A stretch of 64,000 nt of DNA from Promethearchaeota archaeon (lineage in GTDB: Archaea > Asgardarchaeota > Lokiarchaeia > Sigyniarchaeales > SOKP01), in the NCBI GenBank assembly GCA_048940645.1, contig JBHLOI010000012.1, positions 1-64,000 of the forward strand. The letters are read 5' to 3'. The position numbers and the translations under genes are program-made. Below the pieces are notes generated by a model. That model ran no database searches, had not been told where the DNA came from, and saw only the letters and a list, made by a program, of their open reading frames with translations. This document shows positions 31,146 through 34,458 of this stretch, in pieces. Numbering within the stretch: the stretch's first letter is position 1; each line of letters begins with the position of its first letter.

Positions 31146-32228
31146 TTAGATAATAATGAATGAGAGAAAAAATAATACAGTTGATATAATAAAATTGTAA
31201 GTAAGATTATCATCAATTTCTAAGTCTAAAAAATCTAATAATCCAATTAATAATGCACCAATCAAAGGTAATAAGAAGATGCTTAATAAATTTAATATTA
31301 ATAATCCATTTAAGAGTAATAAAACAATTATCCCAGAAAAGAAAGCAACGATTATTCCAGCAATTAATCCTGCATAAGTTTTATTTGTATTTCGAATATT
31401 TTTATGACCAAATGTTCTACCAAATAGATTTGCAGTCATATCACCAAAAATAGCCATGGTCATCGAAGTGCAGATTATTAAAGGGCCGATAGGTTGGATC
31501 ACTCCATAAATTATGATGATCGAAAAACACCCAACTCCCATAGAAATATGGGGGCCAAATCTCATATGACGTTCTTTCTCTCTTAGAATTCTATTAACAG
31601 GTTTTAAAGGATATAACTCTGGTTTCAAAATCCTTATTAATTCTGCGGTGAAAAATCCAATTAAAGAAATTCCAACTAAACAAACAACTAGATATTGCGT
31701 AAAAATCATCTTATCAGGTATATTATTATAAATCGAAAAAAATAAATCAGAGAAAAATTCCGGTAATAATTGAAATAGGTAATTGAATAAATTCTGAACC
31801 AGAAATCCCAATGTAAAATAGAAAAAGATTATTCCTAGTACTATTAAGTGGGTTAATTTTCTGTAAATCTCATATTTTAATGGCAATTCTTTGGGAGGTA
31901 GCAAATCATTTTTTCTTGTATTTTGTCTTCTTAAACTAATTTTTTTCTTTTCCCGATGAATTAAAAGATAAAAAAAGGGTAAAAATAACAAAATAAAACC
32001 CAGTATTAGAATATCAAAAGGATATATAATCAAATCTATACTAGTTATATGAAGTAGATTAATTATTACTAAATTAATTGTGATGCTTATTAGAAAAACC
32101 AATGAATTAATCAGATTATTGAGGAATGCTCCCTTTTCACCCTTCTTTTTAGTAAGATAGGTAATGTATAATAAAATTAAGCCATACAGAGAAAAAATTC
32201 CTACTATAATGTATGATAACAAATCCAA
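31146..32228 (-). CDS. CTP-dependent polyprenol/diacylglycerol kinase family membrane protein (dolichol/phytol kinase, Dgk1-like)
   Basis: EIYRKLTH, ILREKE, FGDMTANLFGR.FG, NKTYAG, IDDN. Confidence 0.85.
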   Translation of the reverse strand: MDLLSYIIVGIFSLYGLILLYITYLTKKKGEKGAFLNNLINSLVFLISITINLVIINLLHITSIDLIIYPFDILILGFILLFLPFFYLLIHREKKKISLRRQNTRKNDLLPPKELPLKYEIYRKLTHLIVLGIIFFYFTLGFLVQNLFNYLFQLLPEFFSDLFFSIYNNIPDKMIFTQYLVVCLVGISLIGFFTAELIRILKPELYPLKPVNRILREKERHMRFGPHISMGVGCFSIIIIYGVIQPIGPLIICTSMTMAIFGDMTANLFGRTFGHKNIRNTNKTYAGLIAGIIVAFFSGIIVLLLLNGLLILNLLSIFLLPLIGALLIGLLDFLDLEIDDNLTYNFIISTVLFFLSFIII

Positions 32229-32327
32229 AGACTACAATTCTCGTGAGATTTTAATAATGTAAATGATCTTTATAATTTTAAGATTTACTGTAAAATAATT
32301 ATCAAGAAAAAGAAAAAAAAAAATAAT

Positions 32328-33728
32328 TTAAAATTGACTTTCATCGATTTTTGGCATATCTGGAGAGGCTAATGCTTTCTTAATATCTTCTTTAGGTAAT
32401 TCGTAATCTTCTAACTTACCGCTCATGAATTCTTTGTATGCTAATAAATCAAAAAACCCATGACCACTGAAATTGAATACGATTACCTTTTTCTCATTAT
32501 TTTCTTTTGCATTTAAGGCTTGATTTATTGCTTCTTTTACCGCATGAGCAGTTTCTGGTGCGGGTAAGATTCCTTCTGCTTGAGCAAATTTAAGGCCTGC
32601 TTCAATAATCTCTGTTTGGTGAAGCATTGAAGTTGAAATGATATTGTTGTTAGATAAAATCGAGATAATAGGCGCCATTCCATGATATCTTAATCCTCCC
32701 GCATGTATTGGACTAGGAATAAATGTATGCCCCAGAGTATGCATTTTTAATATTGGTGCTTTTTTTGCAGTATCTCCAAAATCCCATCTATATTCTCCTT
32801 TGCAGACGCTAGGGCAAGCTCTTGGTTCTACCCCTATTATTTCTAAATCCGGATATTTCCCTTGCAATTTATCTTTTACGAATGGAATTGCAAATCCTCC
32901 AAAATTCGAACCACCTCCCATACAACCTATAAGAATATCTGGCTCTATTCCAATCTTTTCTAGTTGTAGCTTAACTTCTTGACCGATTATAGTTTGATGT
33001 AATAGTACAAAATTTACCACGCTTCCTAGTGAATACCGTATTTTATCACTCCTTAGACTATGCTCAACTGCTTCGGATATTGCAATACCTAGACTTCCAG
33101 GGTGATCTGGATTGTCGTCATAAAAACTTCTTCCAGCATCAGTATGTTTTGAGGGACTTGCATGAATTGCAGCATTATATGCTCTCATCAATATTTTTCT
33201 ACCGGGTTTTTGAAAGAAACTTGCTCTTACCATGTAAACAGTACATTTTAATCCATATATATTACAACCGTAAGAGAGCGCTGAACCCCATTGTCCTGCT
33301 CCAGTTTCAGTGACTAGCTCATTGATTCCTTGCATTCCTGCATAATAAGCTTGAGCTAGAGCAGTATTAGGTTTATGGGATCCTGTAGGAGACACAGATT
33401 CATTTTTAAAGAATATTTTTATTCTCCCATCATTTATACCGAGCATCTTTTCTAACCGGACTGCTCTGTGAAGAGGTGTCGGACGATATGTTGTAGCATA
33501 GATTTCTCTTAGATTTTTTGGGATACTAATCGAACTCTCTTGAGATACTTCCTGTAATACGCATTCTTTTGGGAAGATTGCAAAAGCTAATTCAGGAGGT
33601 GCCGGTTTTCCGTCCATAGGATTAATTAAAGGTGTTATAGGTGATGGTAATTCCGGAAGAATATTTATCCATTCTTTAGGGACATCGTTTGCATCTAATA
33701 AAACTCTTGCATTAAAATTTTCTACCAT
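32328..33728 (-). CDS. trpB2: Tryptophan synthase beta chain type 2 (TrpB2)
   Basis: RPTPLHRA, SPTGSHKPNTA (PLP Lys), TETGAGQWG, GGGSNF, IHAGGLRYHG, PAPETAHA, FNFSGHG; start at ATG 33728 behind GGTGA. Confidence 0.95.
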   Translation of the reverse strand: MVENFNARVLLDANDVPKEWINILPELPSPITPLINPMDGKPAPPELAFAIFPKECVLQEVSQESSISIPKNLREIYATTYRPTPLHRAVRLEKMLGINDGRIKIFFKNESVSPTGSHKPNTALAQAYYAGMQGINELVTETGAGQWGSALSYGCNIYGLKCTVYMVRASFFQKPGRKILMRAYNAAIHASPSKHTDAGRSFYDDNPDHPGSLGIAISEAVEHSLRSDKIRYSLGSVVNFVLLHQTIIGQEVKLQLEKIGIEPDILIGCMGGGSNFGGFAIPFVKDKLQGKYPDLEIIGVEPRACPSVCKGEYRWDFGDTAKKAPILKMHTLGHTFIPSPIHAGGLRYHGMAPIISILSNNNIISTSMLHQTEIIEAGLKFAQAEGILPAPETAHAVKEAINQALNAKENNEKKVIVFNFSGHGFFDLLAYKEFMSGKLEDYELPKEDIKKALASPDMPKIDESQF

Positions 33729-33744
33729 TAAAATCACCGCTTTA

Positions 33745-33915
33745 CATTTTTAGTTAAAAATGCTACATCTTTATATTGGAATTCAATATAATTGATGCAT
33801 AATTGGCAAAACAATTAGAAGAATACTAGGTAAGAGAAATTATGTATTAAAAATTAGAATTTGATTTAATCCAATGAGGGCGTAACTAAAAACGCCAAGG
33901 CCACTGCCAACGCCA
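33745..33915 (-). promoter_or_regulatory. Putative attenuator/leader RNA structures upstream of trpB2
   Basis: GGCGT/ACGCC stem around the leader stop (33879-33896) with a second TGGCGT copy as alternative partner; U-rich tract 33846-33857; hairpins at 33772-33790 and 33745-33762 next to the SD. Confidence 0.55.
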
Positions 33916-33939
33916 AGAAATATTTTTATCAGTAGCCAT
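33886..33939 (-). CDS. Putative trp leader peptide MATDKNISWRWQWPWRF
   Basis: 17-codon ORF with four TGG codons in alternating positions, between a TATA box (33984-33990) and trpB2, stop 157 nt upstream of the trpB2 ATG. Confidence 0.75.
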   Translation of the reverse strand: MATDKNISWRWQWPWRF

Positions 33940-33954
33940 TGATATAAATCATTT

Positions 33955-33990
33955 TTATTTTGTTAATAACAAAATAACAACACTTATAAA
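33955..33990 (-). promoter_or_regulatory. TATA box and 11-bp inverted repeat (candidate operator) of the trp leader promoter
   Basis: TTTATAA on the minus strand (33990-33984); TTATTTTGTTA-A-TAACAAAATAA perfect inverted repeat at 33955-33977. Confidence 0.5.
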
Positions 33991-34044
33991 TTTAACTTTT
34001 TTTACCAAAAATAATTTTTTTTACCAAAAAAATCAAAAATCAGT

Positions 34045-34458
34045 TTATCTTCCTTCAAAAATTTTTGCTAAATTTTTTGCCGCAACTCTCATTACTTTAA
34101 CAGTTTTCATTAATGTATCGATAAGTGTTCCAGCACATACAATTACTAATGGACCTGCATTACTTACAACGATGTAGCCATTTTGGGCTCTTACAATTAT
34201 TTCACTTAATTCTTCTTGAAATAGTGTCTGAATAGTTGAGCTACCAGTCATGAGCAGAGCACTCGCAAGCCCACAAAATTGATCGCCATCAACATGATAT
34301 TGAGGAAGCGCAGAAAATGCAATTTGATAACCCTCCTGAGAAACAAGTGCAATTGCTTCTATGTCAGCATTAGAAGTTATAAATGTAATTTGAGGACTTA
34401 TTTTTTCAATATCTTCGTCAGTAATTCCAAGATCACTTCCGAACTGAATCAAAATCAC
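34045..34458 (-). CDS. Roadblock/LC7 domain protein (eukaryotic signature protein)
   Basis: IEAIALVSQEG..IA, LSEIIVRAQNGYIVVSNAG roadblock pattern. Confidence 0.88.
   Translation of the reverse strand: MILIQFGSDLGITDEDIEKISPQITFITSNADIEAIALVSQEGYQIAFSALPQYHVDGDQFCGLASALLMTGSSTIQTLFQEELSEIIVRAQNGYIVVSNAGPLVIVCAGTLIDTLMKTVKVMRVAAKNLAKIFEGR

Follow-up and report, generated by a model that had tools for sequence, protein, structure and literature searches.

A tryptophan-codon-rich leader upstream of trpB2 in an Asgard archaeon: a probable ribosome-read tryptophan sensor

Leader-peptide attenuation has, to our knowledge, been demonstrated only in bacteria, and full-text literature searches returned no archaeal leader-peptide attenuator. 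In archaea, control of tryptophan (Trp) genes has been described by way of TrpY-type repressors; TrpY of Methanothermobacter is a DNA-binding repressor that acts at the trp promoter and involves no leader open reading frame (ORF). Because archaea couple transcription to translation and possess a eukaryote-like termination machinery, it is an open question whether they employ the ribosome as an amino-acid sensor. Bacterial examples extend well beyond the enterobacterial trpL leader (RF00513, Trp_leader): predicted leader-peptide attenuators of Actinobacteria include candidates before the trpB1EDGC and trpB2A operons of a Corynebacterium (PMC1262725), and cysteine-rich leaderless upstream ORFs (uORFs) act as attenuators in mycobacteria (bioRxiv 10.1101/834739). 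Here we describe the 5′ leader of trpB2 in a 64,000-nucleotide (nt) stretch of DNA from a Promethearchaeota archaeon of the class Lokiarchaeia (assembly GCA_048940645.1, contig JBHLOI010000012.1, positions 1 to 64,000; hereafter the window), in which a short uORF carrying four clustered Trp codons precedes the gene. The comparative evidence argues that this is very probably a Trp-sensing leader, whatever the form of its output, and points to a cis-acting sensor read by the ribosome as its probable mode of action.

The uORF is located on the minus strand at 33886-33939 (ATG at 33939, TAG at 33888-33886), comprises 17 codons plus the stop, and encodes MATDKNISWRWQWPWRF. Its four UGG codons (33915-13, 33909-07, 33903-01, and 33897-95) alternate with CGU, CAG, and CCU across 33895-33915 and constitute the proposed sensing site. 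A TATA box, TTTATAAG (33983-33990, minus strand), lies 51 nt 5′ of the uORF ATG and, as read from the sequence, is presumed to be the promoter of the leader transcript; the usual archaeal spacing would place the transcription start at approximately 33960, some 25 nt past the box. In nearly all of the 30 members of the genus that were compared, a TTTATA-type box occurs about 49-59 nt 5′ of the uORF start. The uORF ends 157 nt from trpB2 (32328-33728, minus strand), the ATG of which, at 33728, is preceded by the Shine-Dalgarno sequence GGUGA (33734-33738). The gene, which would be the target of regulation, encodes a stand-alone TrpB-like pyridoxal phosphate enzyme with a match to Pfam PALP, assigned to TrpB2 by NCBIfam NF009057 (641 bits; cut-off, 366). 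An earlier note, made from the sequence of this stretch, had drawn attention to a 17-codon minus-strand ORF at 33939-33886 with four TGG in seven codons between a TATA box and trpB2, and each of these elements can be read in the sequence. No ORF of 60 or more amino acids overlaps the leader on either strand.

Such a concentration of Trp codons is exceptional in this genome, for which the assembly amounts to 3.83 Mb in 126 contigs with 29.8% GC and an estimated completeness of 89.6%. The earlier note had held TGG to be rare in such AT-rich DNA, and this was borne out: in all six frames of the 3.83 Mb only 37 stop-to-stop frames contain at least four TGG in seven codons, most of them without a start codon. 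A census of start-to-stop uORFs of 6-45 codons within 350 nt 5′ of crude gene calls yielded 8,107, across which Trp contributes 0.9% of residues, and a single one, the trpB2 leader uORF, has at least four Trp in seven codons. When a strict rule was applied (W-x-W in the last 8 codons, length of at most 70 codons, distance of at most 400 nt from the gene), 11 of 1,580 genes in the genome qualified, trpB2 included, compared with 21 of 30 loci in the genus and 13 of 19 loci in other families; the corresponding shuffle means were 0.2 and 0.14, and shuffled and genomic controls gave about 1% or less. Among the other ten genes is one for an EamA transporter, whose W-x-W frame was used as a negative control. 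That frame proved to be the C-terminus of the gene before it; the four closest relatives retain it but none of 24 others do, and it was for these reasons rejected as a second Trp leader. Short ORFs are abundant, as the 8,107 found upstream of genes attest, and one might arise by chance in a conserved intergenic region; given the uniqueness of the trpB2 uORF in the census, its retention at frequencies far beyond the shuffled means, and the poor retention of the EamA look-alike, the chance explanation is refuted and its probability is practically nil.

Conservation was assessed in the TrpB2 loci of 30 species of the genus (73-96% protein identity) and in progressively wider samples; the evidence for leader function is comparative throughout, and genomes that are related cannot be counted as independent samples. 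At 27 of the 30 genus loci there is a uORF that starts with ATG, has 12-26 codons including 2-4 for Trp, and terminates 143-170 nt short of trpB2; at the remaining three the start codon is GTG or TTG. A Trp-rich uORF likewise precedes trpB2 in 49 of 55 named GTDB representatives, typical peptides being MATVRNFGWQWPWRWQ and MTLAKNLAWCWQWPWRWR. In other families of the same order or class the leaders cannot be aligned with that of the window; nonetheless, uORFs ending in W-x-W plus one to three residues (tails such as TWPWH, FPWAWRP, and FWRWQWCWRWQ) were found at 16 of 20 loci, and a seventeenth was recognized by eye. A phylum-wide sample examined under a looser rule gave 17 of 40 loci, compared with 3.4 (maximum, 9) in dinucleotide shuffles, with a patchy distribution over families. 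The occurrence of Trp-rich uORFs before orthologous trpB2 genes across Lokiarchaeia and other Asgard genomes, which the earlier note had proposed as a check, is therefore seen at all 30 genus loci, in most named representatives, and in other families. Between lineages the peptide ranges from 12 to more than 60 residues, and W-x-W near the stop is the sole peptide feature common across families.

What is conserved behaves as a reading frame. Among 51 leaders, the stretch that is open 5′ of the last UGG is longest in the Trp frame in 40 (median of 25 codons, vs. 13 and 10 in the other two frames), and the stop falls 0-4 codons past the last Trp codon in 44. In the genus alignment, every gap within the uORF measures 3 or 6 nt, and a start codon is present in every leader with a uORF. 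A purely RNA- or protein-binding element would not need a start codon, a long frame, a nearby stop, or indels of 3 nt, and the uORF is presumably translated. These features also bear on the suggestion that the UGG(C) repeats and the hairpin described below form the site for a Trp-activated RNA-binding protein similar to TRAP, or a ligand-binding RNA, to which the ORF would be incidental. The four UGG codons, each followed by C and spaced at 6 nt, do recall the spaced triplets bound by TRAP; the nucleotide sequence UGGCAGUGGCCUUGGCG is strongly conserved in the genus, and the RNA helices are conserved at least as well as the peptide. However, even leaders whose nucleotides cannot be aligned retain the in-frame start, the long frame, and a stop 0-4 codons past the last UGG; indels are multiples of three; and the two or three UGG kept in distant lineages would not suffice for a multimeric reader of repeats. 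In addition, TRAP (PF02081) has no match in the 89.6%-complete genome, with a control search that did match Bacillus subtilis, and an Rfam cmscan of 33600-34100 at E-values up to 10 produced only chance micro-RNA and small nucleolar RNA matches and no Trp_leader, T-box, or riboswitch. A protein- or ligand-binding site is consequently an unlikely account of the leader.

The identity of the genes that follow these uORFs provides a further line of evidence. Genome-wide Pfam searches detected no TrpA, indole-glycerol-phosphate synthase, or chorismate-binding anthranilate synthase in the 89.6%-complete genome, and each of the Trp-pathway searches matched all 14 control genomes. TrpB2 is the only Trp-pathway gene detected, so its role is probably indole salvage. 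Some relatives possess a full trp operon (trpD, a trpC/F/B fusion, trpA, trpE, trpG, and a DAHP synthase gene, as identified by Pfam), and five genomes, which represent four families, have a W-x-W uORF directly 5′ of trpD in addition to the one before trpB2; one further genome with a trp operon has neither leader, and one is ambiguous. In genome G055 the two leaders are paralogous, ending in ...SLSLDNKAWPWH before trpB2 and ...SLSLDNKAWPWHKL before trpD. A covariance model of the leader core, R1, has a single match in the genome of the window (33856-33956), and no second copy of the leader RNA was found elsewhere in it. In a genome with two trpB2 paralogues, R1 matches twice, once for each copy (G030, contig C50, 67336-68960 and 83313-84941, 15 kb apart; proteins 95% and 76% identical to that of the window). 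In the sequences compared, the uORF is linked exclusively to Trp genes. The uORF census of this genome yielded no comparable leader for any other amino acid; the ten uORFs enriched in His, Thr, Val, Cys, or Pro all precede unrelated genes, including those for ATP-citrate lyase, pyruvate formate-lyase, a P-type ATPase, and CysRS.

This linkage has consequences for a second alternative, in which the uORF would encode an arrest peptide similar to TnaC that senses free Trp in the ribosome tunnel and induces the downstream gene when Trp is high. TnaC acts at its stop codon, and the Trp residues of the leader peptides are likewise found at a fixed short distance from the stop, often as W-P-W. Yet the same leaders precede biosynthetic operons led by trpD, for which induction by Trp would be counter-productive. 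Beyond Trp, the peptides are not conserved between lineages, with the breadth of lengths already mentioned, and the W12-D16-P24 spacing of TnaC is absent. We regard an arrest peptide as very unlikely.

The leader RNA is predicted to fold around the uORF. In the minimum free energy structure, a helix designated P1 is formed by UGAUUUA (33945-33951, minus strand), 6-12 nt 5′ of the uORF start, and UAAAUCA (33862-33868), and closes a domain of about 90 nt that contains the whole uORF. Nested within it is a hairpin at 33879-33896, the 5′ arm of which (GGCGU, 33896-33892) consists of the last Trp and Arg codons, with the UAG stop in the loop and ACGCC (33883-33879) as the 3′ arm. When the 30-sequence genus alignment was searched without bias for conserved helices, P1, the stop hairpin, and hairpins further 3′ were recovered. 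One P1 pair is G-C in 17 sequences and A-U in 9, and all 6 P1 pairs are changed on both sides in a wider set; the stop hairpin has 97.9% of alignment cells paired, together with compensatory changes, and 5 of its 6 pairs are double-changed in the wider set. Taken over the four proposed helices, 92% of cells in the 30-sequence alignment are paired vs. 32-51% when the partners are slid, and 11 pairs have changed on both sides vs. 4-7 in the slid controls, figures that are favored by the derivation of the helices from the alignment used to score them. For the two core helices in the wider set of 51 distinct sequences, aligned by fitting to the covariance model, 85% are paired vs. 30-48%, and compensatory changes occur in 11 of 12 pairs. 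The GGCGT/ACGCC stem spanning the stop codon had been noted earlier, with a suggestion to look for covarying stems among relatives; it is present and covaries, as does P1. The two additional pairings proposed for it, an extension through CAGTGG/TCATTG and competition of a second TGGCGT copy for the same ACGCC, do exist in this sequence but are specific to its clade and not conserved in relatives.

Stop-in-loop hairpins reappear in lineages with unrelated leaders. They were found in 21 of 38 lineage representatives, compared with an expectation of 9.7 (maximum 19 in 200 trials in which only the downstream sequence was shuffled), and their arms bear no relationship to each other (e.g., GGUGC/GCACU and GUGGC/GCCAC), with stems of 9-11 bp in three families. 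A sister family of the same order, f2, has a different arrangement: a U-run follows a long hairpin, and the stop codon is placed at, or within, the 5′ arm of this hairpin.

In the folding model, a ribosome starved of Trp and the folded leader are mutually exclusive, which is the core principle of attenuation, albeit without a separate antiterminator in this case. Because the last Trp codon forms part of the 5′ arm of the stop hairpin, a ribosome halted there would block the hairpin. Folding with a masked ribosome footprint, a check proposed in the earlier note, gave the following result: in the leader fold of the window, a 28-nt footprint with W13 or W15 in the A site abolishes both the stop hairpin and the inner helix; the hairpin stays when the ribosome is on W9 or W11. 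On this basis the following sequence of events can be proposed. Leader transcription would begin about 25 nt after the TTTATAAG box, and a ribosome would read the 17-codon uORF while the leader is still being synthesized. When charged tRNA-Trp is ample, the ribosome would clear the four UGG codons, terminate, and depart, upon which P1 and the stop-in-loop hairpin would fold into a closed domain and trpB2 expression would be low. When tRNA-Trp is scarce, the ribosome would be parked on the last UGG codons, that is, on the 5′ arm of the hairpin, so that the hairpin and inner helix could not form and more full-length or usable trpB2 mRNA would result. The uORF and trpB2 presumably share a transcript, and the direction of regulation would be the one just outlined. 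Of the earlier proposal that ribosome stalling on the Trp codons switches termination or Shine-Dalgarno accessibility of trpB2, the stalling core is strongly supported by the conserved uORF and the covarying hairpin.

With regard to the output step, our best guess is premature termination or 3′-end cleavage at a U-rich tract after P1, either intrinsic or mediated by aCPSF1/FttA, although we put termination or cleavage of any such kind at somewhat below an even chance. A U5 tract at 33849-33853 (minus strand), 8 nt after P1, is the candidate attenuation or termination point, and of the 30 genus leaders 25 have a run of five or more T no further than 80 nt from the uORF stop, compared with 39% of genomic background windows that contain such a run. 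The U-rich tract that the earlier note had placed after the hairpin is thus present, at a frequency only modestly above background. Many genus members have ACGC followed directly by U4-5; the window has ACGC followed by CCUCAUUGG, and T5 runs are common in the background. The genome encodes aCPSF1/FttA (879 bits), which two studies describe as acting together with U-tracts and with RNA as it emerges from the exit channel of the polymerase (PMC8716108, PMC11616081). Tentatively, and with rather more doubt than confidence, the leader could be an Asgard attenuator of its own design, used by Promethearchaeota and several sister lineages, in which a stop-in-loop hairpin is nested in a helix that closes around the uORF, and the folded state triggers premature 3′-end formation through U-tract pausing and aCPSF1/FttA, the homologue of CPSF73. 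A termination event of the CPSF type would in that case be under the direct control of translation, and the prokaryotes most closely related to eukaryotes would have arrived at amino-acid attenuation without any link to that of bacteria.

Several observations weigh against a ribosome-read attenuator of this kind. The unbiased helix search of the 30-sequence alignment found no conserved antiterminator or other helix mutually exclusive with the hairpin. The stop hairpin of the window has no abutting U-run, the nearest U5 being 25 nt further on, and T5 runs are so common in this AT-rich genome (3.4 per kb inside genes and in 39% of background windows) that the identification of a terminator is weak. 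Across lineages, the stop region has modest folding z-scores (mean, -0.58), and among the tests of stop-region structure across lineages the stop-in-loop test alone was significant. Two species of a sister genus in the same family (L102 and L108, genus g19) keep the synteny of the upstream Roadblock gene with trpB2 and lack a Trp uORF, with only about 165 nt between the two genes; as judged from sequence, this is a natural loss of the leader. The relatives are, moreover, kin, and the counts overstate their independence. Finally, a proximal promoter or operator 3′ of the U-tract might make part of trpB2 transcription independent of the leader.

The last point concerns a conserved module of three small hairpins (33801-33816, 33766-33797, and 33745-33762; 33745-33816 overall, minus strand) between the U-tract and the Shine-Dalgarno sequence. 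The module includes many of the invariant columns of the genus alignment, among them UUG...CCAA and GCAUUA motifs, its hairpins are A/U-rich, and the middle one (33766-33797) covaries; it may act as a further RNA element or, at the DNA level, as an operator or proximal promoter. On it rests a third alternative, according to which the leader is a separate small gene for a micro-peptide or small RNA that merely neighbors trpB2, the latter being transcribed from a promoter inside the module with no control in cis. The A/T-rich inverted repeats could be a TATA box or operator, and the sister genus that lacks the uORF keeps a segment resembling the module behind a TATA-like box. Nor was pairing between the leader and the ribosome binding site (RBS) found. 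P1 3′ strands resemble an anti-RBS in a few species, but across the 30 species cognate P1-RBS pairs (-3.2 kcal/mol) are no better than non-cognate ones (-3.7 kcal/mol; permutation p 0.97), and a sliding-window scan identified no leader segment co-evolving with the trpB2 RBS. Sequestration of the Shine-Dalgarno sequence by the leader was rejected on these grounds, which leaves the part of the earlier proposal that invoked its accessibility unsupported. Against a separate gene, the uORF accompanies two kinds of Trp gene, trpB2 and trpD-led operons, across families with unrelated leaders; each copy of a duplicated trpB2 keeps a leader; the leader RNA occurs nowhere else in the genome; and a free-standing gene for a Trp-rich peptide would have no obvious reason for such linkage. 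An independent small gene is, in our estimation, quite unlikely, and a ribosome-read Trp sensor acting on trpB2 in cis is the interpretation that we favor.

Upstream of the leader, a Roadblock/LC7 gene in the same orientation ends at 34045. At its 3′ end, trpB2 is followed by a long T-run (approximately 32305-32320) and then a TATA-like box, for which reason the gene looks monocistronic. The next gene (31146-32228, minus strand) encodes a 360-amino-acid multi-pass membrane protein that had no match in Pfam or NCBIfam searches.

A number of other features were noted in the leaders and their relatives. A mini-ORF of 7 codons, MIYINGY (33929-33952, minus strand), begins with an AUG within the 5′ strand of P1 and, in a different reading frame, overlaps the beginning of the Trp uORF. 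Of the 30 genus members, 21 retain an AUG and a 7-codon frame at this site, and a 1-nt deletion found in one species joins the mini-ORF in frame with the Trp uORF; the mini-ORF may be translated or may be a by-product of conserved nucleotides. Within the Trp uORF, all four UGG codons are followed by C, giving UGGC every 6 nt (33895-33915, minus strand). In relatives, the residues between Trp are mostly Q, P, R, and H, all codons for which start with C; codon context, RNA pairing, and peptide effects are possible causes. In distant families some leader ORFs are longer, at 45-63 codons, with a common N-terminal MGFALT (f8 and f21, loci L109, L110, L131, and L132; f12, loci L118, L119, and L141), and the tail of the f12 peptides is fixed as W-[HY]-W-G-P-R-G-P-V. 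These features are a hint that the peptide sequence itself may be important in such groups. Contigs L143, L148, L151, L154, L160, L164, and L167 encode TrpB2 proteins 76-96% identical to that of the window and have conflicting public organism labels, namely Odinarchaeota, Thorarchaeota, Hermodarchaeota, Hodarchaeota, and even Nanopelagicaceae bacterium and WOR-3 bacterium, which suggests mislabelled bins.

The locus and its relatives constitute a concrete test case with clear mutational predictions for the UGG codons, the start codon, and the hairpin arms. A leader of this kind also implies that indole salvage would be tuned to the charging state of tRNA-Trp, which refines the metabolic reading of these organisms.

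Set beside systems that respond to Trp by other means, the leader has partial resemblances only. With TrpY it would share Trp-responsive control of trp genes in an archaeon, in that case through a repressor at the promoter and not a leader ORF. As in the TRAP/anti-TRAP system of the Bacillus trp operon, there are spaced triplet repeats in the leader RNA and a response, here proposed, to tryptophan; however, TRAP control needs 9-11 (G/U)AG repeats and MtrB, whereas here 2-5 UGG lie in an open frame and a TRAP gene was not found. TnaC-type leaders have a fixed W...D...P spacing and precede a catabolic gene, in contrast to W-x-W near the stop and biosynthetic genes.

The closest parallel is with enterobacterial trpL. 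In both cases a short leader ORF precedes genes of Trp biosynthesis, the Trp codons are found two to four codons before the stop (...GWWRTS-stop in E. coli, ...WRWQWPWRF-stop here) within RNA that folds after the ribosome leaves, and charged tRNA-Trp is sensed, in the archaeon by proposal, through the position of the ribosome. No covariance-model or sequence match links the two leaders, and the Trp codons are tandem in trpL but alternate here as W-x-W-x-W. In place of the 2:3 antiterminator and 3:4 terminator pair, which was not found, there is a single stop-in-loop hairpin within a helix that encloses the uORF, and in this window no U-run abuts the hairpin. Archaeal RNA polymerase, furthermore, terminates at U-tracts and via aCPSF1/FttA and not at hairpin terminators or through Rho. 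Thus, with no model match, no antiterminator/terminator pair, and a different termination machinery, the proposed element would work like trpL but is outside that family. The actinobacterial and mycobacterial leaders are similarly lineage-specific ORFs enriched in the cognate residue, positioned before biosynthetic operons and found by comparative genomics. Both precedents are bacterial, and in the actinobacterial trp leaders U-tracts accompany a terminator and an antiterminator hairpin, neither of which the Asgard element has in conserved form; what they establish is that the principle recurs with unrelated sequences.

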